A DNA stretch of 64,000 nucleotides from a virus (taxonomy: Duplodnaviria; Heunggongvirae; Uroviricota; Caudoviricetes), in IMG/VR virus record IMGVR_UViG_3300012348_000136, positions 1 to 64,000 of that record; one strand, 5' to 3'. The translations under genes and the position numbers were made by a program. How positions within the stretch are numbered: position 1 is the stretch's first letter; every line of letters starts with the position of its first letter. Positions 27,345 through 60,740 of the stretch are shown here, in pieces. The notes under the pieces were generated by a model, which was not told the DNA's origin, did no database searches, and saw only the letters and a program-made list of their open reading frames with translations.

Positions 27345-27348
27345 ATTG

Positions 27349-27377
27349 TTTACAATTTGTGCACGGCCTGATATAAT
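27349..27377 (+). promoter_or_regulatory. sigma70-like promoter
   Basis: TTTACA-N17-TATAAT. Confidence 0.55.
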
Positions 27378-27383
27378 ATCTTT

Positions 27384-27848
27384 ATGATACGGAATGAGAT
27401 TCCTGCGCTACTAGCCAAACCCACTAGGAAATTTCCAGAGCTGGTTGCGCATTTTATCCCTGCACCTGATTACACAAACGAACCAAACAAAATAGACTAT
27501 ACCCGAATGGAAGAAAAAGAAAGCATTAAAATTCTTGACGAATGTAAAGCACTTCAAATCAAGAAGTCAAACGATTACCAAAATCCCCACTCACGTATTC
27601 GTCAAGCAGATTATTATCCTCGCGGCGTTGCTACAATTCTTGACATCATTCAAGCAAAAGTGCTGCGAATGTATTCGGTAATTGAGGCTATGGAAAACGA
27701 TCCAAGCTATGTTCCGAACTTTGAAAGCTTTGAGGATAGCTGTAAAGATCTTATTAACTATGCTTCATTTGCAGCTGCATATTCACGTGGCAAGGTCGAT
27801 GGTCAGTCTCCTTCCAAAGACTTCCTAAATCGCAATGTGAACGCATGA
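27384..27848 (+). CDS. hypothetical protein (154 aa)
   Basis: Track ORF. Could be an NTP-pyrophosphatase-type nucleotide-metabolism protein; I could not assign it. Confidence 0.4.
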   Translation: MIRNEIPALLAKPTRKFPELVAHFIPAPDYTNEPNKIDYTRMEEKESIKILDECKALQIKKSNDYQNPHSRIRQADYYPRGVATILDIIQAKVLRMYSVIEAMENDPSYVPNFESFEDSCKDLINYASFAAAYSRGKVDGQSPSKDFLNRNVNA

Positions 27849-28720: not shown

Positions 28721-28721
28721 C

Positions 28722-29771
28722 ATGGCACAACATATCACAACACTTGTCGTTGACTATGACGACACAATAGCAATTACTTTTAATCGTGATTGGCAGAATG
28801 CTAAACCAAATCAGCCGCTGATTAATAAACTAAATCAGCTGTATGATCAAGGATGGACCATTCACATTGTAACTGCACGCGGTCAGCTTTCATGTGATGG
28901 TGACTATCAAAAAGCAGATGATAAGTATCGTAAGCAAATTGAAAAGTGGTTGAGCGATCATAATGTAAAGTATCATACGCTAAGTTTCCAAAAGAAGCTG
29001 GCAGCATATTACATTGATGATAAAGGAATAACTCCTGAGCAGTTTGTTGAAAAATTTGATCGGGTTGATCTACAAAACGGTTGGTCAGGTGCTTCAGTTT
29101 ATTATGATGCAGTTACTGATTGCGTTTATAAGACCGCGTCAAACGGTCATGAAGCAATTCAGTGGTATGAGCATGCAACCGCATTAGGTTACAATACACC
29201 ACATGTCCACAACATCATCGGCAACACTATTCGTATGAGTAGGCTGCCTGCTTACACTGGAAGTGTATGTGATGCGGTTGATAGTATCATATCATTCGGC
29301 AAACATCCAGCATTGCGCGGAAATAAAGACGCTCTTGCATATGTTGAACGCTGTACCGCGCGCGTAAAGAACATGTTGCCAACCGATACTTTAAAAAGTA
29401 TTGTTAACTTTCTACAGGTTGCAATGCAGTCTACACCATTCACATTTGGGCACGGTGATTGTTCATCGTTGAACATTATGGGAGCTGCGGCTGACTCATG
29501 TGTTCCTGCATTCATTGATCCAATCAACGATTCTACATTGTATAGCAGCTATGTCATTGACCTTGGAAAATATTATGCAAGCATTGACATCTTTAAACAA
29601 GAACCATCTATTAAAGACGAAATCCTTAATGCTGTAGATAGCGTAAGTAGCTGGACAATCAAAGCGCATGCACTTGGACATCTTTGCCGTTGCTTGCCAT
29701 ATGCACCCACTGAGGCAGACAAACTGCATATAACTACTCTTATCGAAAAACAAACATATGCTCTTAGATAA
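28722..29771 (+). CDS. bifunctional HAD-like phosphatase / APH-type sugar kinase candidate
   Basis: N-terminus VVDYDDTIA (HAD motif I) and IVTAR. C-terminal HGDCSSLNI (HGDxxxxN kinase motif) and FIDPIND. Confidence 0.45.
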   Translation: MAQHITTLVVDYDDTIAITFNRDWQNAKPNQPLINKLNQLYDQGWTIHIVTARGQLSCDGDYQKADDKYRKQIEKWLSDHNVKYHTLSFQKKLAAYYIDDKGITPEQFVEKFDRVDLQNGWSGASVYYDAVTDCVYKTASNGHEAIQWYEHATALGYNTPHVHNIIGNTIRMSRLPAYTGSVCDAVDSIISFGKHPALRGNKDALAYVERCTARVKNMLPTDTLKSIVNFLQVAMQSTPFTFGHGDCSSLNIMGAAADSCVPAFIDPINDSTLYSSYVIDLGKYYASIDIFKQEPSIKDEILNAVDSVSSWTIKAHALGHLCRCLPYAPTEADKLHITTLIEKQTYALR

Positions 29772-30207
29772 AAAAGAACTAGCCGCTAGACTTGGAAAAG
29801 ATATCAACGACGTAAAGATTGGTCTTACCGCGTCCACATTTGACTTGTTTCATGCAGGCCATAATGTAATGCTGATGGAAGCAAAACAACTTTGTGACTA
29901 TCTCATTGTTGGCTTGCTGGTAGACCCAACAAAAGATCGCCCAGACACAAAGAACAAGCCAGTCCAAAGTGTGTTTGAGCGTTACATCCAAATTTCAAGC
30001 TGCAAGTACATTGATGAAATCATTCCGTTTGAAACCGAAAACGATTTGGTCGATATGATCCTAACTATCAATCCTGACATTCGTATTGTTGGGGAAGAAT
30101 ACAAAGGTACTGACCATACTGGAGTTGGTCTTTGCCCAATTCATTATAATAAGCGTCGCCACTCGTTCTCTACAAGTGAGCTACGCACACGAATTCAAAA
30201 TCAATAA
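29758..30207 (+). CDS. cytidylyltransferase-like nucleotidyltransferase (TagD/HldE-adenylyltransferase type)
   Basis: TASTFDLFHAGH HxGH nucleotidyltransferase motif; 149 aa. Confidence 0.55.
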   Translation: MLLDKKELAARLGKDINDVKIGLTASTFDLFHAGHNVMLMEAKQLCDYLIVGLLVDPTKDRPDTKNKPVQSVFERYIQISSCKYIDEIIPFETENDLVDMILTINPDIRIVGEEYKGTDHTGVGLCPIHYNKRRHSFSTSELRTRIQNQ

Positions 30208-30215
30208 TTACATAT

Positions 30216-31238
30216 ATGAAAATACTGATCACCGGCGGTGCCGGATTTGTTGGAACTAATCTAATTCCTTGTTTACTAAATGATGGTCATGATGTTTATG
30301 TCTTTGATAACCTTGCACAAGGAAGCCTAATTCCTGAGGTTCACAATCGTGTTCACGTGTGCATTGGTGATATTACAAATCGTGAACACATCTTTTCGTA
30401 TGTTGAAAATGTAAAGCCTGATATCACGTTTCACTTTGCAGGACTGGTTAGCATTTATGATTGTCATAAAGATTCAGCATCAGCGTGTTTGAATAACATC
30501 AATGGCTCACTCAATGTATTTGATGCATTGCTAGCACATGGTTGTCCGCGTGTTATCTTTTCTGAAACAAGCGCGGTTTATGAGAATTGTGCGTTGCCTC
30601 CAAATGGTTACAATGAATCTCAAAGCGATCCTACTACTTTCTATTCTACATCTAAGGCATGTGTTGCATTGATTGCTGAAAGCTATGCACGTACTAAAGG
30701 ATTGCGATACACTGCGCTTCGTTACTTTAATGTCGCTGGTCCTATTCAAGACTATCGTCGAACAGTACCTCCACTCTTCGCTGGATTTGCAATTCGTATG
30801 ATGGCTGGTAATAATCCAATCATCTTTGGTAACGGTGAACGTCGTCGTGACTTCATTCATGTGGATGACATCAATGATTTCCACATCCTTGCAATGAACA
30901 ATGATGAGACCATCGGTGAGACATACAACCTCGGCCGCGGCGAAAGTTATAGCTTGTATGAAATTGGTGATATTGTCGCAGATGTTTTGCGTAAGCGCGG
31001 ATATCAAAATATTCCCGAAAAGATTACTTATACAATGATGCCTGAAATCAATGGTGAAGCATTTGATATTTACGCAGATGTTCGCAAAGCAAATACATTA
31101 GGGTGGTCTGCATCACGTAGCATTGAAGAAGCGCTAAATGATACCATTGTGTATCTTGAACGTGAAATTGAAAATGGCGCAATTAAGCCAGATACATACA
31201 TGAGCAATATTAATACTGACAGCGTTAAGATTGGATAA
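30216..31238 (+). CDS. NAD-dependent sugar epimerase/dehydratase (extended SDR)
   Basis: ILITGGAGFVGTNL Rossmann motif and YSTSK catalytic YxxxK. Confidence 0.7.
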   Translation: MKILITGGAGFVGTNLIPCLLNDGHDVYVFDNLAQGSLIPEVHNRVHVCIGDITNREHIFSYVENVKPDITFHFAGLVSIYDCHKDSASACLNNINGSLNVFDALLAHGCPRVIFSETSAVYENCALPPNGYNESQSDPTTFYSTSKACVALIAESYARTKGLRYTALRYFNVAGPIQDYRRTVPPLFAGFAIRMMAGNNPIIFGNGERRRDFIHVDDINDFHILAMNNDETIGETYNLGRGESYSLYEIGDIVADVLRKRGYQNIPEKITYTMMPEINGEAFDIYADVRKANTLGWSASRSIEEALNDTIVYLEREIENGAIKPDTYMSNINTDSVKIG

Positions 31239-32514
31239 CATGAACATCTTTGTAGGAAAATTAGGAAAAAGTATTCTCTTCAAGCGATCGTCTTGGGGAC
31301 CAATTGGTGGTGATAATGAAGCTCCGCTATATTATGAAAATCTATTTCATCGCAATCCTGACATTCAATTTTACTTGTTAGGTTGCAGCGACTATGATCG
31401 TCTAGCACCTGAAGAACGTGATCGTATTAATAAGAACGGTAACGTCCATAATATCTGGGGTGATGATTGGAAGAACTTCAAAAAGACATATAGCGGACCA
31501 AAGGTTAGCTGCCGTATTGATTACATGGATCAATGGGCTGCAAAGGCTAAAGAGTCTGGTTTGAACATGGATGTTGGAATCCTTTTTGCAGGACCAAACG
31601 CAACATGTAATATGCCATTTCGTGTGACGAAAATGAAGGATCCAACTGTAATAGCTAAGCCTATTGATATGTTGGCTCTTTATGCTGGTCCGTTGGTTTC
31701 TTACCTAAACACTTACCGTGTTCCATATACATTGATCGTAAATGACCCTCGGTTCTTTCCATTTATGTCAAAGGATTTGCTACACGCGCCATCGAGTGTA
31801 TTGTCGCAATACAATGAGACAATTACTTTCAAGCACCGAAAGACATACACTGATAACACCGTCATTCAGTTTCCACTTGAAGCAAGGTATGCATCGTCTG
31901 AAACAATTTATTTGATTAACGATAAGAGTAAAGAAACTGAATCGAAACCATGCTCGCTTGAGTCATTCTTCGGTGAAGATACGCCAGTTGAAGAAACGGG
32001 TGTGGTAGAGCGCGACATTAAGTTCCTAGTTGTTCTTAATGAAGGTCGCCCTTCGCGCTATGGTCTTCTTAAAGAAAATATTTTAGATCATATTGATGAT
32101 GTTAGTGTTTATGGTCAATGGGATCCTGAAACTATTGGAGATGATCCTCGCTTTAAAGGTAGCGTATCTTATGATGAACTGCAAAAGATGCTTCCTCGTA
32201 TCAAGTATTCATATTGCATTCCAATTAAGCCAGGCTGGGTGACAATGAAGTTTTGGGAACTGTTAAATCATGGAGTTATTCCATTCTTGCATCCAACATA
32301 TGACAGTCAAAATAATCTAAATGCTCCAGAGTTTCTGAGAGTTAAAGATAGTAAAGATTTAGCAGCTAAGATAAATTTCTTAGAGAATAATCCTGAAGAA
32401 TATACGCTATTCTTAAATAGGCTAAAAGCAATGATTAAGCCAGAGCATCGCGATGGGTCGCTATTAAATAACATCGTAATGAATGAAATCACAAAGATAA
32501 CAAATAATGACTAA
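31231..32514 (+). CDS. DNA beta-glucosyltransferase homologue (T4 beta-gt-like)
   Basis: Blocks resembling my recollection of T4 beta-gt: WVTMKFWELL vs ITLRVWETM, a RPSRYG block and a C-terminal EFLRVKDSKDLAAKINFL block. Confidence 0.5.
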   Translation: MDNMNIFVGKLGKSILFKRSSWGPIGGDNEAPLYYENLFHRNPDIQFYLLGCSDYDRLAPEERDRINKNGNVHNIWGDDWKNFKKTYSGPKVSCRIDYMDQWAAKAKESGLNMDVGILFAGPNATCNMPFRVTKMKDPTVIAKPIDMLALYAGPLVSYLNTYRVPYTLIVNDPRFFPFMSKDLLHAPSSVLSQYNETITFKHRKTYTDNTVIQFPLEARYASSETIYLINDKSKETESKPCSLESFFGEDTPVEETGVVERDIKFLVVLNEGRPSRYGLLKENILDHIDDVSVYGQWDPETIGDDPRFKGSVSYDELQKMLPRIKYSYCIPIKPGWVTMKFWELLNHGVIPFLHPTYDSQNNLNAPEFLRVKDSKDLAAKINFLENNPEEYTLFLNRLKAMIKPEHRDGSLLNNIVMNEITKITNND

Positions 32515-33781
32515 TAAGAAATATACATACGCAGCAATTGTACCTCTAATTGGGGGTGAAGTATTGGGTACAACCGAAGCTCTAAATGGGCAGCTACCCG
32601 AATATGTACTATCATATACTCCATTCAAGAATAATGATGAGCATTACATCAATTACATCCGTACTCAAAAAGGATGGTCTGGTGATTATGTTTTCTTAGA
32701 TGAAAACACTGATTATGTAGCGCCGCATGTAGACGTTGTTCTTACAACATGTCCATGCGCAGGACTATCAAGCTTTAGTACAACAAGTAATGAAAATAGT
32801 GCAACCAATGATTGGATGTATCGCACTGCAGAATATGTACTTGGCACAATTAAGCCAACTGTTTTCTGGGGAGAAAATGCTCCACGATTGTATGGTAACA
32901 GCGGTAAGAAAGTAGCAGACCGTCTGCATGAAATTGGTAAGGCGCTTGGATACAGCCTGAATCTTTACTATACCGAAAGCCGTCTGCATGGATTGTCACA
33001 AAAGAGACCGCGCACATTCTACTTCTTCACGAAGAGTGAATCCGCTCCTATCTTTTCGTGGCATAATAAAGAGCCTGAGTCAGTTGAAGACGTTCTTAAA
33101 ATGGCAAAGCGTCCAGATGACCCGATGAATATTCTTACCAATGAAGAATGCCCAACCGCTAATGCATGGGTTGCATACAACATGGCAATGACGGAGTCAA
33201 AGACAATCGGTCAATTGGCTACACACTTTGACAAGACAACTAACATGATTGTTAACACTGACGGCGGTTATGGTAAGAATCTTCTTGAGGTTGCGGATTG
33301 GATGGACGCTAATGGCCATAGTCATGTAGCAAAGCGCGCACGCGCAATGCAAGCAAAACTCGATGATGGTAAAGGCTACTGGGCGCACGGCGTCACTCTT
33401 CCAAAAGGTCAACTTATTCCTGCTTTCATCGGTGCACTTCCGTACTGTATGATTAACCCATTCACCGAAAAGTACATTACTATTCGTGATGGTCTTCGTC
33501 TAATGAAGATGCCTGAAGACTTTAATCTTGTGGGTGATAAACCACTCGCCAAGCTTAATCACGTTTGCCAAAACGTTCCAGTTACGACTGCACGTGACAT
33601 GATGCTTAATGTTATTGAGTATCTTGAAGGCAAAACGCAATATGGAGACTGCTCATATATCAAGCAAAGTAATAAGAATAAGAATATTGTTCGTGTTACG
33701 CTTGATGAAACGTACGCAGCAAATACTGCGGACCTTGATGAGTTTTTCCATTTACATAAACACAAAACTAATATACAATAA
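32507..33781 (+). CDS. C5-cytosine methyltransferase-fold protein
   Basis: Ordered motifs: I PLIGGEVLG, IV TCPCAGLSSFS, VI GENAPRL, VIII SQKRPRTFYFF, X-like CQNVPV. Confidence 0.5.
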   Translation: MTNKKYTYAAIVPLIGGEVLGTTEALNGQLPEYVLSYTPFKNNDEHYINYIRTQKGWSGDYVFLDENTDYVAPHVDVVLTTCPCAGLSSFSTTSNENSATNDWMYRTAEYVLGTIKPTVFWGENAPRLYGNSGKKVADRLHEIGKALGYSLNLYYTESRLHGLSQKRPRTFYFFTKSESAPIFSWHNKEPESVEDVLKMAKRPDDPMNILTNEECPTANAWVAYNMAMTESKTIGQLATHFDKTTNMIVNTDGGYGKNLLEVADWMDANGHSHVAKRARAMQAKLDDGKGYWAHGVTLPKGQLIPAFIGALPYCMINPFTEKYITIRDGLRLMKMPEDFNLVGDKPLAKLNHVCQNVPVTTARDMMLNVIEYLEGKTQYGDCSYIKQSNKNKNIVRVTLDETYAANTADLDEFFHLHKHKTNIQ

Positions 33782-34880: not shown

Positions 34881-35179
34881 TGATTGAAGGAAAAGACTAC
34901 TTGTTGGTCGAAGATGATTTACATCCAGACCAATTCCTGATACAATTAACAAGTAGCGGATATGCTGGTGTAATTTACCGTTATGGTAAAGTCAGTATAG
35001 TTGAGGAAAAGAATCAGGCACGCTTGAAGTTTATCTACAAGATTGAGAGCGTGCCTGATTTTCTCACACACCGCCGCGACAAATTGCAAGAAGATCCTGA
35101 GTTCAATAATCTGCTCGGTGAAATTCTCGCTGACATTCTCTCAAATAACGACTGTAAAATAGGAAGACCACATGATTGA
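34880..35179 (+). CDS. small protein in the position of T4 gene 40
   Basis: Lies between the uvsX and gp41 homologues as gene 40 does in T4; no motif support. Confidence 0.35.
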   Translation: MIEGKDYLLVEDDLHPDQFLIQLTSSGYAGVIYRYGKVSIVEEKNQARLKFIYKIESVPDFLTHRRDKLQEDPEFNNLLGEILADILSNNDCKIGRPHD

Positions 35180-36581
35180 TATTTCTCTTGAATCCCTTAT
35201 CTTAAACAACCTTGTCAACAATGAAGCATACACACGCAAAGCTATGCCTCATATTAAGCCTGAATACTTTACAGGCTCTCAGCGTGTAATCTATGAGCTG
35301 ATTCTTGACTTCATCAGCAAGTATAATAAGCTTCCAAACGCTAGTGTACTTGACATTGAATTTCAAAAAAGTAATGCAGCGGTGCGTCCAGACCGTCACG
35401 ATATTCTAAAAGAGATACGTGAATTTAGTACGCCACAACCAGCTGAACATGAATGGCTTGTAGACAGCACTGAAAAGTGGTGTAAGGATCGCGCTGTTCA
35501 TTTGGCTGTTATGGAAGCCATCTCAATCATCGATGGCAAAAATAAAGATAAGGCCGAAGGAGCAATTCCTGAGATTCTTAACAAAGCTTTAAGCGTAACA
35601 TTTGATACAAACGTAGGTCACGACTATCTTGAGAATGCTGATCGTCGATTTGATTTCTATCATCGTGTTGAAGATAAGATTGAGTTTGATCTTGATATGC
35701 TTAATCAAATTACCAATGGCGGTGTTCCTCGTAAGACACTAAATATCATCCTTGCAGGTACAGGTGTTGGTAAGAGTTTGGGTATGTGTCACCTTGCCGC
35801 AGCTGACCTTTCTATGGGTCGCAACGTTCTTTACATTACGATGGAAATGGCAGAAGAACGTATTGCTGAACGTATTGATGCTAACCTGCTTGATGTTCGT
35901 ATTGATGAGCTAAAGAACTTGTCACAAACTGCTTTCTCATCGAAGATTAAGAACCTATCAGAACGCACAAAAGGTAAGATTGTTATTAAGGAATATCCAA
36001 CAGCTAGTGCACATGCTGGACACTTCCGCGCATTGCTACATGAGCTGAAACTGAAAAAGAAGTTTACGCCTGATGTCATTTACATTGACTATCTTAACAT
36101 TTGCGCTAGCAGCCGTATTAAAGGATTAAGCGGTAGTGTTAATACTTACAGCTTAATCAAGGCTATTGCTGAAGAACTACGTGGTCTTGCGGTTGAATTT
36201 AATGTTCCGATTTGGAGTGCAACACAGGTTACACGTGGCGGCTATAACAGTTCCGATGTTGAACTAACTGACACATCCGAAAGTTTCGGTTTGCCTGCAA
36301 CCGCTGACTTGATGATTGCGTTTATCAGCACTGAGCAACTTGAAAAGATGAATCAGCTTATGGTTAAACAGCTCAAGAATCGTTATAATGATGCAAATAC
36401 AAATAAGCGATTCACTGTTGGTATTGATCGCTCAAAGATGCGACTGTATGATGTTGCTGATCCAACCGCAAATATTATGAGTGAGGAATCTTCATCAGCT
36501 GCGCCAGTTGCAAATACACCATTTAGTCGAGGCGGTAATAATGCACAAAGAGGAAAATCCTTTAGCGACTTCAAAGTATGA
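35172..36581 (+). CDS. 41: gp41-like replicative DNA helicase (DnaB family)
   Basis: ILAGTGVGKSLGMCHLAA ... NVLYITMEMAEE ... IDANLLDV ... GLPATADLMIA match my recollection of T4 gp41. Confidence 0.8.
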   Translation: MIDISLESLILNNLVNNEAYTRKAMPHIKPEYFTGSQRVIYELILDFISKYNKLPNASVLDIEFQKSNAAVRPDRHDILKEIREFSTPQPAEHEWLVDSTEKWCKDRAVHLAVMEAISIIDGKNKDKAEGAIPEILNKALSVTFDTNVGHDYLENADRRFDFYHRVEDKIEFDLDMLNQITNGGVPRKTLNIILAGTGVGKSLGMCHLAAADLSMGRNVLYITMEMAEERIAERIDANLLDVRIDELKNLSQTAFSSKIKNLSERTKGKIVIKEYPTASAHAGHFRALLHELKLKKKFTPDVIYIDYLNICASSRIKGLSGSVNTYSLIKAIAEELRGLAVEFNVPIWSATQVTRGGYNSSDVELTDTSESFGLPATADLMIAFISTEQLEKMNQLMVKQLKNRYNDANTNKRFTVGIDRSKMRLYDVADPTANIMSEESSSAAPVANTPFSRGGNNAQRGKSFSDFKV

Positions 36582-36630: not shown

Positions 36631-36804
36631 ATGCACCCAGTTCTTAATCAGGATGAATGCGGTTACATTCAAGTAATTCAGGATTTTTCAATTGGATCAC
36701 GTCGTACGCAAAGAGAAGGAAGATGGTTAGGTATGCTACCACCGCCCGATCATCTATGCTCACGACATGTTGAAATAAATGCTGAAGATTTAGTGTTTGT
36801 ATAA
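36631..36804 (+). CDS. small ORF (57 aa)
   Basis: Hand-read; low support. Confidence 0.2.
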   Translation: MHPVLNQDECGYIQVIQDFSIGSRRTQREGRWLGMLPPPDHLCSRHVEINAEDLVFV

Positions 36805-36807
36805 ATA
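36800..36807 (+). promoter_or_regulatory. T4-type late promoter core
   Basis: Exact TATAAATA a few nt upstream of the ATG at 36814. Confidence 0.4.
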
Positions 36808-36813: not shown

Positions 36814-38364
36814 ATGTCTACAACACTTAGCTTAAAAGGATACTTAGCTGAGGCGATTTCCTCGTCTTCAGCGGATAAAGCAGCTTTCCTTATTGCTAAA
36901 TATCTCAAGAAAAAGACAGGATTGATCTTCTTCCGTTATCCGGGCCTTGAGAAATTTAAAAGCAGTAAAGGTCAGGGATTCGGCTTACGCTTCTATACTC
37001 ACAAAAAGAATCGCTCTGTTCGATTTAACTGGGTTAGCGTAACTGCAGTTGGAATGGTTGGTCTACACAGCATCGACTATTGGGATGGCGTTTCGGATAC
37101 ACCATGGCACATCGAGTTTGACACTGAAGTTTCATTGGTTAAGACATTGCCGATCATTGCATCGATGATCAGTAAGGTAAAACCAGAACTTGGTTCGTTC
37201 TATACTCTACCAGATGGTGTTCCTCTTGAGGAAGCAGGCCTTGTTGCAGAATCAGCAATGATTCTTGAAGCAAAAGGCGGTGTTAGTGTTGAGGATATGC
37301 TTGACGGTATTCTTGACATGGTTGCAATGCCAAACTTCTCAAAGGGTAAGGTATACACTGCATACAAAGGCGCTGGTATGAAGATCTTCGATCAGCTTGA
37401 AATGATGTACCCAACCTTGATTGTTAAGAGCGGTACAAAGTATACTTGGGATGGTTCTCCAAAGGATCTGCAAAAGATCAAAAAGGAAAAGAACAAGTTG
37501 CTTGCGGCAATTGGTAGTGTTGAAGCAAAGGTAACAAAAGGCGCATCTAATGAAACATATGCGCCTGAAGGTAACATCGCTGAAATTGAAAATAACCGCG
37601 AGCGCCTTTCATTTGAAAAGCAGTTGCTTGACCTTGAGAACTTGCTTAAGCTAACGGTCAACGGTGCCGCAAACGCAATCTTCGTTTCAGGTAAAGGTGG
37701 TGTTGGTAAGACTCACACAACCGAAAAGATTCTTGCAAGCATGGGTCTACGTGACGGTGCTGGTTACTTCAAGAATACTGGTTCTGCTTCGGCTGCTGGT
37801 ATGTACTCGTTGCTATTCCGCTACAAGAACGATATTATCTTCTTCGATGACTCTGACGACGCTCTTAAGGATCAGGAAAGCCGTAACTTGCTTAAGGCTG
37901 CAACTGATACCAAGAAGATTCGTAAGCTTGTTTGGAACAAGATGGGTAAGAACGTTGTTGATAACGAGGATATGACCGACGAAGAAATCCTTGACCAAGG
38001 GTTGATTCCACGTTTCTTCGAATTCACTGGTAAGGTAATCTTTATCTCTAACCTTGATCTTGACAAGCTAGATCCAGACGGTGCACTACGCACTCGCGCA
38101 TTCATCGTAAACATCGATCCAACTGAAATGGAAATCTATGATTTCATGGAAAAGATCGTTGGTGATATCCAACTTGAAGATGGTCTTACGCTTGATCTTA
38201 CAGCACGTAAGCACGTTGTTGATCTGCTACGTAAAGGTAAGAGCAAACAAAGCGCTAACCTTCGTAAGCTATCACGCGGCCTATCTATGGCAGCAGGTGC
38301 ACTTGCAGCTGGCGTTGATGTCAGCGACAATGACCTGCAGCGCATGATTGAAACATACGCTTAA
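36814..38364 (+). CDS. AAA+-type P-loop ATPase with an unknown N-terminal domain
   Basis: Walker A GKGGVGKT, Walker B IIFFDD about 55 aa later, sensor-1-like VIFISN, then ALRTRAF. Confidence 0.5.
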   Translation: MSTTLSLKGYLAEAISSSSADKAAFLIAKYLKKKTGLIFFRYPGLEKFKSSKGQGFGLRFYTHKKNRSVRFNWVSVTAVGMVGLHSIDYWDGVSDTPWHIEFDTEVSLVKTLPIIASMISKVKPELGSFYTLPDGVPLEEAGLVAESAMILEAKGGVSVEDMLDGILDMVAMPNFSKGKVYTAYKGAGMKIFDQLEMMYPTLIVKSGTKYTWDGSPKDLQKIKKEKNKLLAAIGSVEAKVTKGASNETYAPEGNIAEIENNRERLSFEKQLLDLENLLKLTVNGAANAIFVSGKGGVGKTHTTEKILASMGLRDGAGYFKNTGSASAAGMYSLLFRYKNDIIFFDDSDDALKDQESRNLLKAATDTKKIRKLVWNKMGKNVVDNEDMTDEEILDQGLIPRFFEFTGKVIFISNLDLDKLDPDGALRTRAFIVNIDPTEMEIYDFMEKIVGDIQLEDGLTLDLTARKHVVDLLRKGKSKQSANLRKLSRGLSMAAGALAAGVDVSDNDLQRMIETYA

Positions 38365-38795
38365 TGAAACTCGTAAAAGTATACGGCTGCTCAAAAACCC
38401 CAACTCGTAAGGACTTAGTCCGCCGAGCAGCCGTATACTTTCTTAAGCTTTTACTACCACGTAAACGAAAAATACAAATTGACATTCATCTCGAAGAAGA
38501 CCTTATAACAAAAGAAAGCGTCTATGGTGAATGTTATCATATGTCTAAGTCGCCGTCTAAGTATAAAATACGGCTTGACAAAGACATGAATGATCTTACG
38601 CTAATAACAACACTGGCGCACGAATTTATCCACGTGAAACAGTTTGATCGCAATGAATTAGCGTTTCTTTATAGCTGTAGCCGTTGGCACGGCGAATATT
38701 ATCCAGATGATGAGTTTATTGAAAGTGAAGAACCATGGGAGGTTGAGCCGCGTGAACGCGAATCAGACTTAGCCTCAAAATTCTTTGCACAATAA
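38364..38795 (+). CDS. HExxH zinc-metallopeptidase-like protein
   Basis: TLAHEFIHVKQ motif. Confidence 0.45.
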   Translation: MKLVKVYGCSKTPTRKDLVRRAAVYFLKLLLPRKRKIQIDIHLEEDLITKESVYGECYHMSKSPSKYKIRLDKDMNDLTLITTLAHEFIHVKQFDRNELAFLYSCSRWHGEYYPDDEFIESEEPWEVEPRERESDLASKFFAQ

Positions 38796-38804
38796 ATATC
38801 ATCT

Positions 38805-39626
38805 ATGGCTGCATCAGAAGGAGTAGATTTAGAATGGGCGATTGTTGACTATGTAAATACTCAGATGTCAAACAAAATAGTATCGTCTGGTAAAACATAT
38901 TCTAAGAAGATAGAAGACCAAGCAAAAAAATGCACTGAGCATATTATTAAGTATGCAGCTGGCAAGCGCGTTGAAGCGTGGCATTCAGACGATTCAACAA
39001 ATCCATTTGGGATTGCGATTTACGCGAAACCGGAACCTAAAACCGATATTATACTTAAGATCGGCTCAAAGGTTTATTCTACATCGGTTAAAATGGCTGG
39101 AGGCGTACAATTAGCATCAGGCCAGGGTTCGTCAACAGCGGACTTATTTGAGGCAGCATCAAAGTCATTAAGCAATTCAAAAAAGAAAACAGTATTAAGT
39201 TCTATCATAAAAGAATTAAGAGTTCTTCCTACTAGATTATTATCACAATCAAATCTCAATAGGATTTTAACTGAAGGATCAGATTCAACAATTAAGGAAT
39301 TTGTATCACGTGGAAAAATCATAAGTGATAAAAGCTATGACTTGTGGTTGAAAAATAATAAGCCAAAATTAATGAGTGATTTGCTGAGTTATATCCAAAA
39401 GGATAAGGAATTCACTGAAGCTCTACTATATGAAAGTATGACTGGTGAGCAAACGTTAAAGTCATATAGAGGAGCGGTTGCGGATTCAATTATTAGTCCT
39501 AAAGGATTCTATGTCATAGATTCAAAATATGTGTCTTCTATCATGAATAAGATTAAATTTGACATCCGCGGTAAGTCAAGAAGTGGAATTACTGGACTAG
39601 CATTCAGAATAGATTTAAAAGCATGA
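38805..39626 (+). CDS. hypothetical protein (273 aa)
   Basis: Track ORF. Confidence 0.45.
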   Translation: MAASEGVDLEWAIVDYVNTQMSNKIVSSGKTYSKKIEDQAKKCTEHIIKYAAGKRVEAWHSDDSTNPFGIAIYAKPEPKTDIILKIGSKVYSTSVKMAGGVQLASGQGSSTADLFEAASKSLSNSKKKTVLSSIIKELRVLPTRLLSQSNLNRILTEGSDSTIKEFVSRGKIISDKSYDLWLKNNKPKLMSDLLSYIQKDKEFTEALLYESMTGEQTLKSYRGAVADSIISPKGFYVIDSKYVSSIMNKIKFDIRGKSRSGITGLAFRIDLKA

Positions 39627-40924
39627 AATCATTTAGAAGTTTTTTAACTGAAGGAGCAAACCTTGCACCAGCCGAACTTTATAAGTACGATTGGCGTCTT
39701 GAGCTGTTTATCGACAAACTTAAAAGTGGGCTACCATTAGCTCTTGTAAAAGGCGGAGAGATTTCGCTGCACTATGACGCGGACGCTGAAAGTCGTTTAC
39801 GCGCTAAGCAAGACCCAGGTAAGATTTCTTTTCGAGGTTATGACAATTCCGTCTATTACCTAAAGGACTTTGCAAAGTCAAAGGAATTTGGAGGAGGCGG
39901 TGGTTCTGGTGCAGGTGCCGACGTTACACAGCTAACCGAAAGCGCGCAGGCAGTTTATGCTGCAGCTAAATGGGCTGGCGCTAAGACATATAATACTGCT
40001 GAATTAACTCAAGGATATTCTCACTCTGAAGTTGATGATGATCTTAATCGTATCTTAAATGACTTGCCAAAAGAATGGCGTGAGTCATGCATTCTTGGTG
40101 CTGAGGAATTATACAAACTACTTCATGGAAAAGCTTACACATTCCATCGTGGTAGTGCATGGGTAGATAAACTTGAAAAGCACTTCAAGACTCTTAATTC
40201 TAAAGAGAAGGCTTTCTCAAACTTAAATAAGTGGAGTCCAGCTGATATTTACTTAGTGTCTCCTGTTGGTAAAAATATTCACTTTGAGAATGCACAAAGT
40301 ATTGCTGAATTAAACAGCATGCTAACTGAAGCATTAAAGAACAAAGATGTAGTTGGCGTGTCATTGAAGCTACTTAAAAAGAATGCTCATATTTCATACT
40401 ACAACTTTGATACCAAGAAAAAGATTGTTGAATTTGATCACTTCACAACTGGTAACAAAGGATTCTTTAGCGGTAAGGACGTCTATATGTACTTTACGTT
40501 AGACGGTAAGATTCAGTTCCGTACATTTCCCGAAACATTCCAAGGCGAAATTAAAGGTAAGAATGCTAACCAAGGGAAGTTAAGTTATGGACCAATTCAA
40601 ACGATTCTTCGCCAACTAAAGCTACCTCAGCTGATTGACGTTAAGAAACTGCGTAGCGGATTGCAAAAGAGCGACCCAACCTTGCTTAAGGAGTTTTATT
40701 CAAACTATACACGTTACTCAAAGGACACCGTAAAGGTTTCATATGACGAGTTTGTTGACAGGATAAAAGATCAGGGCGTTTCTTGGTCCTTTAGTAAATT
40801 CCTTGGAGTTGAACTTATTGACATAATCTCAAAAAGCTCGCAAGAAGACGAGTTTATTACAGCATGCATCAGCTATGCAAGTAGCAGCAGCGATCTTAGC
40901 GCACCATTTATCAAATTAGAATAA
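39623..40924 (+). CDS. putative internal head protein (capsid-targeting-sequence-like N-terminus)
   Basis: N-terminus MKSFRSFLTEG resembles the T4 internal-protein targeting peptide MKTYQEFIAEA. Confidence 0.45.
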   Translation: MKSFRSFLTEGANLAPAELYKYDWRLELFIDKLKSGLPLALVKGGEISLHYDADAESRLRAKQDPGKISFRGYDNSVYYLKDFAKSKEFGGGGGSGAGADVTQLTESAQAVYAAAKWAGAKTYNTAELTQGYSHSEVDDDLNRILNDLPKEWRESCILGAEELYKLLHGKAYTFHRGSAWVDKLEKHFKTLNSKEKAFSNLNKWSPADIYLVSPVGKNIHFENAQSIAELNSMLTEALKNKDVVGVSLKLLKKNAHISYYNFDTKKKIVEFDHFTTGNKGFFSGKDVYMYFTLDGKIQFRTFPETFQGEIKGKNANQGKLSYGPIQTILRQLKLPQLIDVKKLRSGLQKSDPTLLKEFYSNYTRYSKDTVKVSYDEFVDRIKDQGVSWSFSKFLGVELIDIISKSSQEDEFITACISYASSSSDLSAPFIKLE

Positions 40925-40927: not shown

Positions 40928-42166
40928 ATGAAATCATTTAAAGACTACATCGCTGAGGCTTCGGCTGAAGGCAAAAATTTACACATGACTCATATCGAGG
41001 ATGCTGTTATTTACGGCGGCATTAAAGGAGCACGTGATGCAATTCTTGCGTTGCGAAGCTTACGCGATATGCTCGCGGGTAATGCTAAATCAGCCACAGA
41101 CGTTACAGTAAAATGGGATGGTGCACCGGCAGTATTTGCTGGTATTGATCCATCGGACGGACAGTTCTTTGTTGCTAAGAAAGGTATCTTCAACAAGAAT
41201 CCAAAGATCTATAAGAGCGTGTCAGACGTTCGTGCTGATACGTCTGGAGACCTTGCTGATAAACTGTCCATTGCTTTTAATGAATTACAAAAGCTTGGAA
41301 TTAAAGGAGTGCTACAAGGTGACATTATGTTCACCCAAAAGGATCTTAGTGTTGAAGACTATGATGGAGAAAAGTACATCACGTTTCAGCCCAACACAAT
41401 TGTTTATGCAGTTCAAGCTAATAGCGAAATTGCAAAGACTATCAAGAAAGCTAAAATTGGCGTAGTATTCCATACACGATACACCGGAGCTACTCTTGAA
41501 AGTATGAAAGCTTCTTATGACTTTGATCAAAGCGAACTTAAAAAGACTTCGTCAGTTTGGTTCCAAGACGCAAAAGTTCATGACCTTTCAGGTAAGGCTA
41601 CCTTTACAGCTGAAGAGACCGCTGAGCTAACCGCAAGACTGTCAGTTGCAGGTAAGATATTTCAAAAGATCAACGGTTCTACACTCAAGGAAATTGAAGA
41701 CAATCCTGACTTTGCACAAAGCCTTGAAACATTCAATAACACATATGTACGTCGCGGTGAAACCGTAAAGGATACAAAAGCACATGTTGATAACTTAATC
41801 AAATGGGCAACAGATCGCTTCAATAAAGACATCGAGTCTAAGAAGTCAGCAAAAGGTAAGGAAGCTGCATCGGCAAAACGCGACGACTATATGAAGTTCT
41901 TTTCGGATGAAAACAAAAAGAACCTCAACTTGGTTTATCAGCTACAAAATGCAATTATTGATGCAAAGATGTTAATTATAAATAAACTCGATACTCTTAA
42001 AAAGTTAAGTACTTTTATTAGAACTAAGAACGGATTTAGAGTTACAAGTCAAGAAGGTTTTGTTGCAATTGATCATTTATCAGGTGGCGCAGTAAAATTG
42101 GTTGACCGCATGAATTTCTCTTATTCAAATTTTAGTCCTGACGTAATTAAAGGATGGGATCGCTAA
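40928..42166 (+). CDS. putative internal head protein (capsid-targeting-sequence-like N-terminus)
   Basis: N-terminus MKSFKDYIAEA; also carries a KWDG motif reminiscent of nucleotidyltransferase motif I. Confidence 0.45.
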   Translation: MKSFKDYIAEASAEGKNLHMTHIEDAVIYGGIKGARDAILALRSLRDMLAGNAKSATDVTVKWDGAPAVFAGIDPSDGQFFVAKKGIFNKNPKIYKSVSDVRADTSGDLADKLSIAFNELQKLGIKGVLQGDIMFTQKDLSVEDYDGEKYITFQPNTIVYAVQANSEIAKTIKKAKIGVVFHTRYTGATLESMKASYDFDQSELKKTSSVWFQDAKVHDLSGKATFTAEETAELTARLSVAGKIFQKINGSTLKEIEDNPDFAQSLETFNNTYVRRGETVKDTKAHVDNLIKWATDRFNKDIESKKSAKGKEAASAKRDDYMKFFSDENKKNLNLVYQLQNAIIDAKMLIINKLDTLKKLSTFIRTKNGFRVTSQEGFVAIDHLSGGAVKLVDRMNFSYSNFSPDVIKGWDR

Positions 42167-42167: not shown

Positions 42168-43166
42168 ATGAAACAATCAGATACACCTGCAAGTAAAGAA
42201 CCTAAGAAGATTCGATTAAAGGATCTTATCGCTGTTGACTACACTGACGACTCATGGCCTGAGGACGAAGAAGGACAGTTAGCATACGATTATTGGAAGC
42301 GCGCGTCTGGAGTTCTTGATGAGGAAGAAATTGAAGAAGGCATTGATTGGTTTAAGCTTGTCTATGGTGACAGCAAATTAGCTATTGCTAAGAAGATTAA
42401 AGCTACCCCATCTAAGACTTTAGAAACTCTAGCTAAATCAAATCCAAATGCAGCTGGTGCTCAAAAATTTCAGCATGAGTTTGCCGTAAAAGAACTTGAA
42501 TATCGCAAGAAGATTAATGATCATTCTGACGGTAACCCAAAATATAAGAAAGAATATGGGAATGGATATAGTCATTTAGAAGATTCACTCGAAGAATCTC
42601 ACGATTCTCAAATCTCTAAGTATGAACTAAATGGCGAGCTTAAGCGTGTAAATGATCGTATTAAGTTCCTACGTGCGGCTCATCATGGTTCCTCTTTACC
42701 TAAGGACGTTTCATCTGAGCTAAAGCGACTTGAAGATCAACGTGATAGTATTCTTTCAATGCTTAAGGAAGAAGATATCCTTGAAGATGTTGACTCTGAG
42801 ACTATCACAGAGGCACTTAATATGTTGCAGCGCATGAAGCGCCGCGCGATTATGCGTAGAAACAAATCAAAGATTCTTGCAGGCCGTCGTCGCGCGCAAC
42901 GCCGCCGCGCATCCACCTCAGTTCTTCAGCAACGTGCAGTGCGCGCGGCTCGTGCTGCTCTTGCTCGCCGCTTGTTACATAAAAATAAAGGTGAAGCTAG
43001 CTATGGTGAAAAGGTTCGAGTTGAAAGAATGCTTGCTGCTCGCCAAGGGGCAATTAAGAACATTGCTCGCCGTCTTCTTTCAAAGGTTCGTCAAAAGGAA
43101 CGTATGCGTTTCCAAAAGCATGCTACCCCTCCAAAGCCAATCCAATCCATTAAGCCAAATAAGTAA
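42168..43166 (+). CDS. hypothetical protein with a strongly basic C-terminus
   Basis: Arg-rich tail RRRAQRRRAST... Confidence 0.45.
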   Translation: MKQSDTPASKEPKKIRLKDLIAVDYTDDSWPEDEEGQLAYDYWKRASGVLDEEEIEEGIDWFKLVYGDSKLAIAKKIKATPSKTLETLAKSNPNAAGAQKFQHEFAVKELEYRKKINDHSDGNPKYKKEYGNGYSHLEDSLEESHDSQISKYELNGELKRVNDRIKFLRAAHHGSSLPKDVSSELKRLEDQRDSILSMLKEEDILEDVDSETITEALNMLQRMKRRAIMRRNKSKILAGRRRAQRRRASTSVLQQRAVRAARAALARRLLHKNKGEASYGEKVRVERMLAARQGAIKNIARRLLSKVRQKERMRFQKHATPPKPIQSIKPNK

Positions 43167-44401
43167 TGGGACTCAAATCATTCCGTACCTACACCGAAGA
43201 ATCAACTAAGGAATTAGTTGCGACATTCGGCCGCTTTAATCCGCCGACAATTGGTCATGAAAAATTGATTAATGCGGTTGCAAAAGAAGGCAAAGGTAAA
43301 ACATATCGCATTTACGCATCGCAAAGCGAGGATTCAAAAAAGAACCCGCTATCTTACGATGATAAGATTAAATTTATGCGTAAGATGTTTCCACAGTATG
43401 GTCGCAATATCATACTGGATCGCGCAATCAAAAATGTGTTTAACGTAGCGTCAGCTGCACATGACGATGGCTACACAAAATTCACGTTGGTTGTAGGGAG
43501 CGATCGTGTTCCAGAATTTAAGTCTTTGCTTGCAAAGTATGATGGTGTTAAAGGTACACATGGGTACTATAAATTCCGTGATGGTATTCAAGTTGTATCT
43601 GCGGGCGAACGCGATCCTGATGCAGACGATGTAAGTGGTATGAGTGCATCAAAGATGCGTGCTGCGGCGGCTGATAACGATCTTGATACTTTTGCAAAAG
43701 GACTGCCTAAAACATTTGGTGAAGTCAAGGAGTTGTTTAATGCTGTGCGAAAAGGAATGGGTCTAAAAGAAAGCCATAACTTCCGTAAGCATGTTCAGTT
43801 TGAGCCACTAAGCAATATTCGTGAACGCTATATTGCTGGAGAAATTTTCAATGTTGGCGATGAAGTTTATGCTGAATCTGAGAGTGACATGATCCTTACT
43901 GTTGAATCACGCGGACCAAACCATGTCACGTGTAAACTACCAAATGGAGAAACCAAACGCTTCTTTATAACCGATCTGCATATAGTTGAAGGCTCTTCAT
44001 ACTATACGGGCCTGTCAAAATCAACCGCTGATAAACGCGAAAAGCATTTTGACAAGAACGCTAAGAAGGATGACGATGATGACAGTGCATACGCGCCTGC
44101 ACCAGGCGATAAGACCGCTGTCACTAAACCTTCAAAATACACAAAAGAATATCAAAGGAGATTTGATGAAGGCGCTAGCCCAGTGTCTAAAGCACTGCGT
44201 AAAAAGTCAGAAGATTCTGGTATTGACTATGGTATACTTAAAGACGTATATGACCGTGGACATGCTGCATGGAGAACTGGCCATCGTCCTGGAACAACGC
44301 CTGAGCAGTGGGGATTGGCTAGAGTAAACAGTTTTATAGTTGGAGGAACAACCCGCAAGACCACAGACTCCGACTTATGGAAAAAGCATAAAGGTAAATA
44401 A
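43166..44401 (+). CDS. cytidylyltransferase-like nucleotidyltransferase, NMNAT candidate, with capsid-targeting-like N-terminus
   Basis: N-terminus MGLKSFRTYTEES, then GRFNPPTIGHEKL (HxGH motif) and SGMSASKMR (ISSTxxR-like); unknown C-terminal half. Confidence 0.5.
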   Translation: MGLKSFRTYTEESTKELVATFGRFNPPTIGHEKLINAVAKEGKGKTYRIYASQSEDSKKNPLSYDDKIKFMRKMFPQYGRNIILDRAIKNVFNVASAAHDDGYTKFTLVVGSDRVPEFKSLLAKYDGVKGTHGYYKFRDGIQVVSAGERDPDADDVSGMSASKMRAAAADNDLDTFAKGLPKTFGEVKELFNAVRKGMGLKESHNFRKHVQFEPLSNIRERYIAGEIFNVGDEVYAESESDMILTVESRGPNHVTCKLPNGETKRFFITDLHIVEGSSYYTGLSKSTADKREKHFDKNAKKDDDDDSAYAPAPGDKTAVTKPSKYTKEYQRRFDEGASPVSKALRKKSEDSGIDYGILKDVYDRGHAAWRTGHRPGTTPEQWGLARVNSFIVGGTTRKTTDSDLWKKHKGK

Positions 44402-44409
44402 ATAAACAT

Positions 44410-45648
44410 ATGAAGAAACTTTCACAAATTGAATCAGAAGCCATTGCGATATATGAAAATATGGAAATGGCACTCGGAGGTAACTCAAATGAAATTGTCC
44501 CTCCAATCACACCAGCGACGGTTGACCGTGTTGGTTCTGCGCTAGAGAAGTTAGATCAAATTGGCGAAATGGCAAATGATCTATACAATACAATTTCTCA
44601 TCTTGAAGAAATTGATGCAGAGACTGATGCTGCTCTAACAGGTGCATACAATTCTATTGACGACCTATACACGAAGATTGATGACAAGTATGACGTCATT
44701 CCAGTTGAACTCGATGAATATGACATTGAGGAAGAACTTGAACTTTCAGCCGACATTGAAATCATTGCTGAAAAGCTATCAGCTGATGCAGATGCATCTG
44801 AATGGATCGATGATTTTGTCAATAGCGATGCTCCACAGTTTAAAGGTAAGTCCAAGAAGGAACGTATCAAGATGGCTCTAGGCGCATACTATGGTGCACA
44901 AAAGAACGAAGAAGTTGATCTTGAAGAAGCAGCTGCATCTGACACTAAATGGCGAGTAGCATTCTCATATGCTGATCCATCTGGATCTGGTGTTGCTAAT
45001 GCTAGAATCGTTATTAAAGCAAACGATTCCGAAACTGCAAAACGATATGCAGAAACAAGTCTTAAAAGAAAAGGCAATTACAAAGATTTCAAAATTAAGT
45101 CTGCTTCGAAGATGAATGAAGAAGTTGAGCTTGAAGAAGCGCTGTTACCAAGTCACAATTGGAGTCCTGGTCATGATATGGTACCTGCGCCAATTGGTAA
45201 AGATACTATAACTGCAAAAGGAACGACCAAAGACATTCAAAAACTTTGGGGTATCAAAATGCGCGCAGGAAAGTGGGCTGATACCTTCGTTGGCATGTAT
45301 AAAGATGGAACGCTTGGAATTTTTAACAATGATGGCGAATGGAAATATAAAAATGTAGCCGATTTTGAAAAAGCCTTTGCTAAATTCCGTAAGACAGGCG
45401 ATCTTGACGAGAATGTTGACCTTGAAGAAAGTGTTAACCTTCCAAAAATCAAAGAGCTTGTATCACTTGCTCTAATTGATGAAAAAGATGTACCTGCTAC
45501 AATTGCTGCATTAAAAGCAACTCAATCTGATAAGACATTAACTCCAGCGCAAACCAAACTACTTGGTAACCTTGCTGTTATGTTGACCAACGTTATCCTT
45601 GGAGATACAAGTGCATTGTCCAGCGTTAAGCGCGCATCTAAGGAATAA
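44410..45648 (+). CDS. acidic repeat protein, possibly a processed internal-protein precursor
   Basis: Repeated EEVDLEEA, EEVELEEA and ENVDLEES (LxE-type sites). Confidence 0.45.
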   Translation: MKKLSQIESEAIAIYENMEMALGGNSNEIVPPITPATVDRVGSALEKLDQIGEMANDLYNTISHLEEIDAETDAALTGAYNSIDDLYTKIDDKYDVIPVELDEYDIEEELELSADIEIIAEKLSADADASEWIDDFVNSDAPQFKGKSKKERIKMALGAYYGAQKNEEVDLEEAAASDTKWRVAFSYADPSGSGVANARIVIKANDSETAKRYAETSLKRKGNYKDFKIKSASKMNEEVELEEALLPSHNWSPGHDMVPAPIGKDTITAKGTTKDIQKLWGIKMRAGKWADTFVGMYKDGTLGIFNNDGEWKYKNVADFEKAFAKFRKTGDLDENVDLEESVNLPKIKELVSLALIDEKDVPATIAALKATQSDKTLTPAQTKLLGNLAVMLTNVILGDTSALSSVKRASKE

Positions 45649-47896: not shown

Positions 47897-48439
47897 ATGA
47901 AATCATTTAAAACATACGTAGAAAATTCTACAATCCCTAAGGCTTTACTATATCATATTCTATATGATATCCCATTAGCGCAAAATGTGTTTCGTCCACA
48001 TACTCCAAACTATTATGCATTGTTTGAGTATGCACGCCAAAATGTAGATAGTCTTGAAACTCTATCTGAATTTGATCGTATGCTTATGGAAAGCGACATT
48101 GGTCAAATTGGAATATATGAAGGACAGGAAGTTCCGCTTGACCATCCTCTACTTGAAAAAGAAGATGAAGACGTAGAACTCAATTCTCCAAAGCGCGGCG
48201 GATCTAAGAAATACTATGTCTATGTTAAGAATGATAAAGGCAACATTATCAAAGTTCAGTTTGGAGACACTTCTGGATTAACTGCAAAGATTGATGATCC
48301 AGCTGCTCGCAAATCATTTGCGGCGCGTCATAACTGCGATCAGAAAAAGGATAAGACCAAGCCTGGGTATTGGGCGTGTCGCCTCCCTTATTATGCTAAG
48401 CAACTTGGTCTTAAAGGCGGAGGTTCATTTTATTGGTAA
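47897..48439 (+). CDS. putative internal head protein (capsid-targeting-like N-terminus)
   Basis: N-terminus MKSFKTYVENS. Confidence 0.4.
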   Translation: MKSFKTYVENSTIPKALLYHILYDIPLAQNVFRPHTPNYYALFEYARQNVDSLETLSEFDRMLMESDIGQIGIYEGQEVPLDHPLLEKEDEDVELNSPKRGGSKKYYVYVKNDKGNIIKVQFGDTSGLTAKIDDPAARKSFAARHNCDQKKDKTKPGYWACRLPYYAKQLGLKGGGSFYW

Positions 48440-60665: not shown

Positions 60666-60740
60666 CCTCCAGTAGCTCAGTGGTAGAGCGGGTTCTTTAT
60701 AAGGGCCGGGTCGTTGGATCGTTCCCAACCTGGAGGACCA
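60666..60740 (+). tRNA. tRNA, anticodon UAU (Ile-like), CCA encoded
   Basis: Hand-folded cloverleaf; anticodon stem has two G-U pairs; T-loop ATCGTTC. Confidence 0.5.

Follow-up and report, generated by a model that had tools for sequence, protein, structure and literature searches.

In a 64,000-nucleotide stretch of a T4-like phage genome (positions 1 to 64,000 of the IMG/VR virus record IMGVR_UViG_3300012348_000136, hereafter the window), an open reading frame (ORF) at positions 43166-44401 encodes a three-part enzyme of the T4-GC190 type behind an N-terminal leader of about 12 residues. The leader is of the kind found on the internal proteins (IPs) of phage T4, where it serves as capsid targeting sequence (CTS). 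The favored reading, to which a probability of roughly 60% is assigned, is that the enzyme is loaded into the phage head by means of this leader and is delivered into the host together with the DNA. Nearly every gene of the window lies on one strand, and a ribonucleotide reductase is encoded downstream of the gene cluster that surrounds the focal ORF. The first-pass annotation, which had been made from the sequence alone, had placed the ORF exactly. Its features are as follows:

43166..44401, plus strand: focal ORF with ATG start, 411 amino acids (aa), stop codon within the coordinates
43166..43201, plus strand: T4 CTS-type leader MGLKSFRTYTEE, residues 1-12, present in 49 of 49 aligned homologues
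43211..43765, plus strand: Rossmann-like nucleotidyltransferase domain of the HIGH superfamily, residues ~16-200
43247..43258, plus strand: (H/T)xGH nucleotide-binding signature, T28-I-G-H31, with G30 and H31 invariant, distant homologues included
43643..43660, plus strand: ISxTxxR-type second signature, S160-A-S-K-M-R165, with S160 and R165 invariant in a diverse alignment (A3)
43838..43990, plus strand: small SH3-like beta-barrel, residues ~225-275, with AlphaFold2 strands at 233-273 and Foldseek matches to small beta-barrels
43997..44374, plus strand: helical DUF5824 module, residues 278-403 (Pfam PF19141)

The focal gene adds a member from an uncultured phage to the known family T4-GC190, which is represented by PHROG families 395 and 3041. 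The protein was assigned to the "cytidylyltransferase" families PHROG 3041 (E 2e-83) and PHROG 395 (E 1e-73), the homologue SSM2_161 of cyanophage S-SM2 is annotated as T4-GC 190, and both the homology over the full domain and the conserved place downstream of a g41-type helicase are shared with the family. A tblastn search with the focal protein matched 562 phage records, mostly T4-like cyanophages (Kyanoviridae). The best full-length relatives were those of Methylophilales phage Melnitz (44% identity), phage C48C1 and Pelagibacter phage HTVC008M, while a megablast search of 50,697 phage records with the region of 36-50 kb did not find a near-identical genome. The cytidyltransferase start MNPPTIGH... 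in the C48C1 deposit (OQ984149, L002 8998-10407) is probably miscalled; an in-frame upstream GTG yields (V)IKNFSQYLLEEEREVYFTFGRMNPPT, which restores the leader and the first beta-strand.

The focal protein begins with MGLKSFRTYTEES, and its tag can be written (MGL)KSFRTYTEE. Reading of the T4 genome showed that IPII and IPIII begin with MKTYQEFIAEA and that IPI begins with MKTFKEF. The regular expression [KR].[FY]..[FY]..E matches T4 IPII and IPIII as well as the leaders of the window. The first-pass annotation had likened the focal N-terminus to MKSFKDYIAEA of a neighboring protein (gene start at 40928) and to the T4 peptide; both quotations were verified, and its view that an IP-type leader is common to the local gene cluster was borne out by the counts. 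In the window, translated in six frames, a strict pattern, K[ST][FYL][KRQ].[YF][ILVT].E, had three occurrences versus 0.02 in shuffled sequences, and in all three cases, in ORFs adjacent to one another, the start codon immediately preceded it. The leader is carried by five or more window ORFs of different families, the focal ORF included.

For counts outside the window 80 related viral contigs were fetched, and the leader was scored over 86 loci and the window. Among 1,286 genes the pattern [KR].[FY]..[FY]..E stood at the N-terminus 70 times, versus 23 occurrences elsewhere within 281,571 residues; this corresponds to a roughly 100-fold enrichment. The patterns were set after the data had been seen, and they are supported by the T4 control and by the independent loci. 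When strict and loose forms were taken together and families were named by the start position of their window member, the leader was present in 75 of 93 nucleotidyltransferase homologues, 51 of 77 DUF6267 proteins, 10 of 18 members of the 39623 family, 18 of 38 members of the 47897 family and, as F/Y..F/Y..E variants, 4 of 5 members of the P-loop ATPase family (36814). It was found in none of 35 helicases and none of 28 members of the 49085 family. It heads proteins that are otherwise unrelated, namely the nucleotidyltransferase, the DUF6267 protein, the 39623 and P-loop ATPase families, short basic proteins and stand-alone modules.

In an alignment of 49 homologues, which spans 47-94% identity, every sequence begins with K(S/G)Fxx(F/Y)xxE, and K4 and F6 of the leader are invariant together with G22, R23, N25, P26, P27, G30, H31, S160, A161, S162 and R165 of the enzyme domain. 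The homologues of S-SM2 (MKSFFQFLSEA) and S-SCSM1 (MKSFLQFLKEA) have the leader at the extreme N-terminus in spite of about 100 residues that are inserted before the enzyme domain. It was not found in the homologues of the non-T4-like jumbo phages PA5oct and PBECO4, nor in that of Cr30. As a control, the regular expression was run over the six frames of T4, and the only real N-termini that matched were those of IPII, IPIII and ORF 61.1. Taken together, the position of the leader in spite of the inserts, its absence from PA5oct, PBECO4 and Cr30, and the T4 control make a role like that of a signal peptide the best reading, and with good probability this role is the targeting of proteins to the head.

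The T4 ORF 61.1 (NC_000866, L098 18966-19130, minus strand; 54 aa, "hypothetical") itself begins with MKTFKEFIKED and thus has an IP-type leader. It is located between genes 61 and 41, which is the interval of the marine leader-bearing cluster.

Proteomic data from relatives bear on the packaging of the enzyme. T4-GC190, a "putative citidylyltransferase", is a cyanophage core gene, and its product was detected in purified S-SM1 virions (Sullivan et al. 2010, PMC3037559). The S-SCSM1 "NMNAT" (ORF91, gp281) is a virion protein according to mass spectrometry, and so are the products of neighboring genes. S-SZBM1_140 was detected in virions along with an adjacent 457-residue protein, and so was ORF154 of S-CREM2, which begins with MKNFSSFLTEA and is 36-39% identical across the enzyme domain. 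The leaderless PA5oct homologue has not been flagged as a virion protein, unlike its neighbors. The first-pass proposal that the protein is packaged is therefore plausible, as mass spectrometry of purified virions from four cyanophages detected homologues that bear the leader, and it is likely that the protein is also present in the virion of the focal phage.

The first-pass annotation had regarded the idea of a packaged enzyme as undescribed. This does not hold, because the virion association of T4-GC190 has been published since 2010, and papers of 2022-2023 state that the NMNAT-like protein is probably virion-borne and enters the host (PMC9602691, PMC10665884). The central idea is thus not new. 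In the literature searched, many subscription papers being outside its reach, no account of a capsid targeting sequence or of internal proteins in cyanophages was found, and a T4-type leader as the packaging mechanism appears to be undescribed.

The AlphaFold2 model of the focal protein had a mean predicted local distance difference test score (pLDDT) of 82, with about 90 within the nucleotidyltransferase domain and less than 50 for residues 3-10. It is built from four parts, an N-terminal segment, the Rossmann-like domain (16-200), the small beta-barrel (233-273) and a helical C-terminal module. The barrel aligns in the homologues of S-SM2, S-SCSM1, S-CREM2 and HTVC008M. Pfam searches detected CTP_transf_like (PF01467) at residues 20-118, above the cut-off, and DUF5824 at residues 278-403 (E 3e-22); the latter exists elsewhere as a stand-alone ORF with its own leader (loci L050 and L023). 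Two catalytic motifs, HxGH and an ISSTxxR-like one, had been proposed in the first pass. The second, SGMSASKMR (residues 157-165), was confirmed; the first, within FGRFNPPTIGHEKL (residues 21-34), is strictly TxGH (T28-I-G30-H31), and HxGH occupies the same position in the homologues of S-CREM2, PBECO4 and Cr30. With both signatures, a Rossmann-like fold and a PF01467 score over the cut-off, the modeled protein belongs unambiguously to the HIGH-signature nucleotidyltransferase superfamily, and it is very probable that catalysis has been retained.

The substrate is a different matter. A Foldseek search against the PDB placed archaeal nicotinamide mononucleotide adenylyltransferases (NMNATs) at the top (template modeling scores of 0.65-0.69, 15% identity), followed by NadD, NadM, glycerol-3-phosphate cytidylyltransferase, phosphopantetheine adenylyltransferase (PPAT) and FAD synthetase. 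PPAT scored level with the adenylyltransferases for nicotinamide mononucleotide (NMN) and nicotinic acid mononucleotide (NaMN), though the latter were the commonest structural neighbors. None of the curated NMNAT equivalog cut-offs of NCBIfam was reached: the focal protein scored 14-19 bits versus 112-341 (19 versus 341 for NadR, and 15.4 versus 127, 15.3 versus 167, 14.2 versus 181 and 14.1 versus 112), and all 49 homologues likewise stayed below these cut-offs. The first-pass grouping with NMNAT and PPAT thus stands for the HIGH-type fold and fails for membership in an NMNAT family; "NMNAT-like" is a fair description of a resemblance. Because no curated NMNAT model was reached, NMN/NaMN remains only a candidate substrate, and a rather doubtful one.

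A considerable possibility, though somewhat short of even odds, is that the enzyme is indeed packaged but performs other chemistry than that of nicotinamide adenine dinucleotide (NAD), for example adenylyl or cytidylyl transfer or a reaction of the acyl-adenylate type, maybe together with the DUF6267 protein or on nucleic acid via the SH3-like barrel. Single-sequence and full-length-profile searches of PDB sequences yielded nothing significant. A diverse profile of the domain had its best, marginal match with 3gmi of the UPF0348/TmcAL family (E 2e-4), which covered both signatures, while NMNATs appeared only at E 0.3-0.45. TmcAL acts on tRNA. PHROG 455 is a fusion of the DUF6267 neighbor protein with a focal-type nucleotidyltransferase. 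In the DUF6267 protein K62-W-D64-G65, E376-G377 and K390 are invariant and resemble motifs I, IV and V of covalent nucleotidyltransferases (ligases). Its AlphaFold2 model (pLDDT 80) gave Foldseek matches to ATP- and NAD-dependent DNA ligases, which were weak and not significant (E 0.05-0.4) and which speak against leaning on this partner; the ligase-like reading is tentative. NMN/NaMN is in turn favored by the top structural neighbors, which are mostly NMNAT, NadD or NadM, and by the weak NCBIfam matches among the 49 homologues (NadR 40, NadD 36, PRK08887 24, archaeal NMNAT 20, PPAT 9). A role that is coupled to the DUF6267 protein, or aimed at nucleic acid, is at least as likely as one on NMN/NaMN.

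The NAD genes of the phage itself also bear on this question. Two of them stand out:

12775-13725, plus strand: Prs-like (PRPS-like) protein, candidate Adps, 3 kb upstream of the Nampt-like gene
16872-18458, plus strand: Nampt-like protein of the Namat type, 528 aa, with 484 bits (E 3e-144) to the phage Namat crystal structures 9W5X/9W5W versus 222 to classical Nampt

Judged by homology, the Namat and Prs-like pair probably constitutes the NAD+ reconstitution pathway NARP1, in which NAD+ is rebuilt from ADP-ribose and nicotinamide and no NMNAT is required. A simple NAD reading of the focal enzyme is weakened by this apparent pathway. It is also weakened by the distribution of the family, as the cyanophages to whose core genes T4-GC190 belongs mostly do without NAD-salvage pathways (PMC3037559). 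Both points speak for another chemistry and against the first-pass idea of a pre-made counter to NAD depletion. The possibility that the focal enzyme is the missing NMNAT of a NARP2-type pathway was considered and rejected, because the Nampt homologue of the window is of the Namat type (NARP1). Between the Prs-like and Nampt-like genes an SPFH/Band-7 protein is encoded, and near this NAD island lie genes for a nucleoside 2-deoxyribosyltransferase-like protein and for a NADAR-domain protein (19339-19854 and 20370-20900, plus strand). The NADAR gene (PDC-M42C) was the sole PADLOC match.

Two further explanations concern packaging itself. The enzyme could be an unpackaged cytoplasmic NAD-salvage enzyme, with an N-terminus that is shared due to recombination between neighbors or to translation initiation, and with virion detections that are carry-over. 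The first codons, ATG AAA TCA TT(T/C), are indeed similar at the DNA level in four window genes, and the phage has the further NAD-related genes described above. However, the codons that follow ATG-AAA-TCA-TTT vary among the window genes, so that it is the peptide that has been conserved in the leader, and this is true, with codons and residues varied, across phages that are 35-55% identical. In addition, the leader is present on unrelated folds and on small stand-alone modules, it equals the experimentally defined T4 CTS, the family was detected in four independent virion proteomes from different laboratories, and the neighbors of the S-SCSM1 homologue are likewise virion proteins. Despite the contamination caveat that is voiced in the proteomics papers themselves, this explanation is improbable. 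About equally improbable is that the leader loads the protein into the prohead for a role there, as a scaffold- or DNA-associated head component that is degraded or retained and not delivered in active form: in T4 most core proteins with protease sites are degraded after assembly, and the fused DUF5824 and the basic neighbor could be DNA-packing elements, but the catalytic signatures are strictly conserved over a very wide family, which indicates a selected enzymatic activity, and enzyme peptides in mature virions indicate that the protein is not degraded.

Several points weigh against loading by the leader and delivery with the DNA. The virion-proteome authors warned of a possible co-purification of abundant late proteins, the detections come from homologues, and the focal phage is known here from its genes alone. 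The genes for prohead protease and scaffold are outside of the 64-kb window; a gp21-type protease and a gp22-type scaffold are present in the relative S-SCSM1 (gp040 and gp041). A whole-genome scan of S-SCSM1 found the strict leader on only 2-3 proteins, and therefore the correlation between leader and virion is statistically weak. At the putative cleavage site the neighbors have Y-I-A-E/A and F-L-T-E/G, the homologues are split between (I/L/V)xE and (F/Y)xE, and the focal leader ends with Y-T-E-E/S. As this is not the canonical (I/L)xE, cleavage is less certain than in the neighbors. Finally, the leader has a fixed distance of 18-20 residues to the GRFNPP motif in the focal subfamily, and thus it may retain a structural role in the domain.

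Delivery with the DNA nevertheless remains the favored reading, and it is tempting to speculate how it could proceed. As with the T4 CTS, the leader would dock the freshly synthesized protein on the scaffolding core while the prohead assembles, and a gp21-type prohead protease would cut it off after a glutamate (predicted to be E11 or E12). The mature enzyme would be kept in the head beside the DNA and exit with it at infection. In the host it would transfer a nucleotidyl group, probably an adenylyl group, from a nucleoside triphosphate to a phosphorylated acceptor, with NMN/NaMN as the best single guess. We infer docking, cleavage, ejection and substrate from comparison with T4 and with the related enzymes.

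In the interval between the g41 helicase and the g61 primase, the focal ORF lies in a cluster with further leader-bearing genes. The cluster and its surroundings comprise:

35172-36581, plus strand: DnaB-like (g41-type) helicase, just upstream of the cluster
36800..36807, plus strand: T4 late-promoter consensus TATAAATA, which ends 6 nucleotides before the first cluster ATG (36814)
36814..38364, plus strand: P-loop ATPase-like protein, 516 aa, leader variant MSTTLSLKGYLAEA, first cluster gene after the helicase
38791-38798 and 44397-44404, plus strand: AATAAATA, at equal spacing before 38805 and 44410
39623..40924, plus strand: 433-aa protein, leader MKSFRSFLTEG, homologue of S-SCSM1 gp282 (tblastn E 1e-48)
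40928..42166, plus strand: DUF6267 protein, 412 aa, with the leader MKSFKDYIAEA
42168..43166, plus strand: 332-aa protein, acidic in its N-terminal half and extremely rich in Arg/Lys in its C-terminal half (RRNKSKILAGRRRAQRRRAS...)
47897..48439, plus strand: 180-aa protein, leader variant MKSFKTYVENS, whose C-terminal module is fused to the nucleotidyltransferase in P0013, P0104 and Melnitz gp18

This interval is syntenic with the location of the leader-bearing T4 ORF 61.1. A wider generalization, that the T4 CTS is conserved far beyond the T-even phages and marks a locus of head-loaded, largely enzyme-sized cargo between helicase and primase in marine T4-like phages, is nearly an even bet. 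S-SCSM1 gp282, the homologue of the 39623 protein, is labeled "virion protein" in GenBank. The promoter consensus TATAAATA occurs 8 times in the window versus 3.4 expected, which is a weak enrichment, and the late-promoter-like boxes are suggestive of late, morphogenetic expression. None of the cluster proteins had a match in PADLOC.

Some additional observations were made in the cluster. The short homologues of the 42168-43166 protein, Melnitz gp17 and C48C1 gp88, are basic and leader-bearing and recall DNA-associated internal proteins. In other phages DUF6267 is fused to a focal-type enzyme or to a small cupin. A 143-aa protein at 38364-38795 (plus strand) within the cluster has the HExxH metallopeptidase-like motif LAHEFIHV; it does not carry a leader and is conserved in 14 related loci, where it is leaderless, too. 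Modules are shuffled, as the C-terminal fusion domains of the enzyme recur on their own in small ORFs that each bear a leader. This applies to DUF5824 and to modules with the motifs "EYQGRKVxLN..RARHxCD", "WIDDFVxSDAPQFKGK" and "WExGYERRVVKTT", and was seen at window positions 47897-48439 and 44410-45648, in P0013, P0054 and P0104, and in four related loci (L011 7683-7916, L020 4531-4761, L050 5803-6060 and L071 4117-4431).

Elsewhere in the window, a possible DNA-hypermodification block is located at 26637-33781 (plus strand), with divergent thymidylate-synthase-like, NAD-dependent sugar epimerase/dehydratase, glycosyltransferase-like and C5 cytosine methylase-like proteins. Another cytidylyltransferase-like protein, a short one, is encoded there as well (29758-30207; PF01467 E 4e-14). 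At 60666-63466 (plus strand) 16 tRNA genes are arrayed, and the minus-strand ORFs in this region are probably spurious.

Few ocean viruses are as abundant as the T4-like cyanophages and pelagiphages, and the focal gene belongs to their core set. If the wider generalization is true, abundant ocean phages would inject a pre-made enzymatic toolkit, which would comprise the nucleotidyltransferase, the ligase-like DUF6267 protein, the P-loop ATPase and shuffled small modules, and, with the leader as a guide, candidate injected proteins of uncultured marine phages could be predicted from sequence alone. A head-targeting tag would explain why the enzyme recurs in virion proteomes and would settle the doubt whether it is contaminant or cargo. 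Like the T4 CTS, it would also lend itself to engineering, as a means by which proteins are brought into such capsids. The case for an NAD role is weaker than that for the leader.

Compared with known NAD systems, NARP2 (Nampt and NMNAT-Nudix of KVP40) and NARP1 (Adps and Namat) share with the present case the theme of phage NAD+ synthesis versus an NAD+-depleting defence. Pfam detected no Nudix domain in the focal protein, which is also not adjacent to Nampt, unlike the NARP2 Nmnat (KVP40 NatV type). The NARP1 and NARP2 enzymes are expressed in the cell, and packaging has not been reported for them. The focal protein has the fold and the two signatures of NMN/NaMN adenylyltransferases (archaeal NMNAT, NadM, NadD, NadR), but it is only 11-18% identical with them, has the extra conserved motifs SxSxDxKKNPL, GSDR and RDPD, and has gained the barrel and DUF5824. 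The profile match to the UPF0348/TmcAL family (tRNA-Met cytidine acetate ligase) takes in both signatures as well as the "F..lpk" stretch that comes after them; this enzyme combines a HIGH fold with an additional domain that binds nucleic acid.

Of the known systems, the closest are the T4-GC190 proteins of S-SM1, S-SM2, S-SCSM1, S-SZBM1 and S-CREM2, with 36-42% identity over nucleotidyltransferase and barrel, a shared N-terminal leader and a shared locus after the g41-type helicase. The focal phage, which has not been cultured, is pelagic and related to Melnitz, C48C1 and HTVC008M. In contrast to the cyanophage proteins, its enzyme has a C-terminal DUF5824 and is encoded in a larger leader-bearing cluster, and it does not have the insert of about 100 residues that separates leader and enzyme in S-SM2 and S-SCSM1.

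A precedent for delivery is T4 Alt, an ADP-ribosyltransferase that is packaged in a T4-type head and injected along with the DNA. Its fold and chemistry are different, and with MELITELFDE at the N-terminus it has no IP-type leader. The T4 internal proteins' capsid targeting sequence was reportedly described by Mullaney and Black in 1996. As in IPI, IPII and IPIII, the marine proteins have a tag of about 10 residues, MK(T/S)(F/Y)xx(F/Y)xxE, that ends with a glutamate, putatively of the gp21 cleavage type, and in both cases the tag is the sole similarity among otherwise unrelated, clustered, non-essential-looking proteins. However, the T4 internal proteins are small and basic, have no enzymatic activity and inhibit restriction of the GmrSD type, whereas the marine cargo, for which targeting and cleavage are predicted, includes enzyme-like proteins of 400-500 residues.

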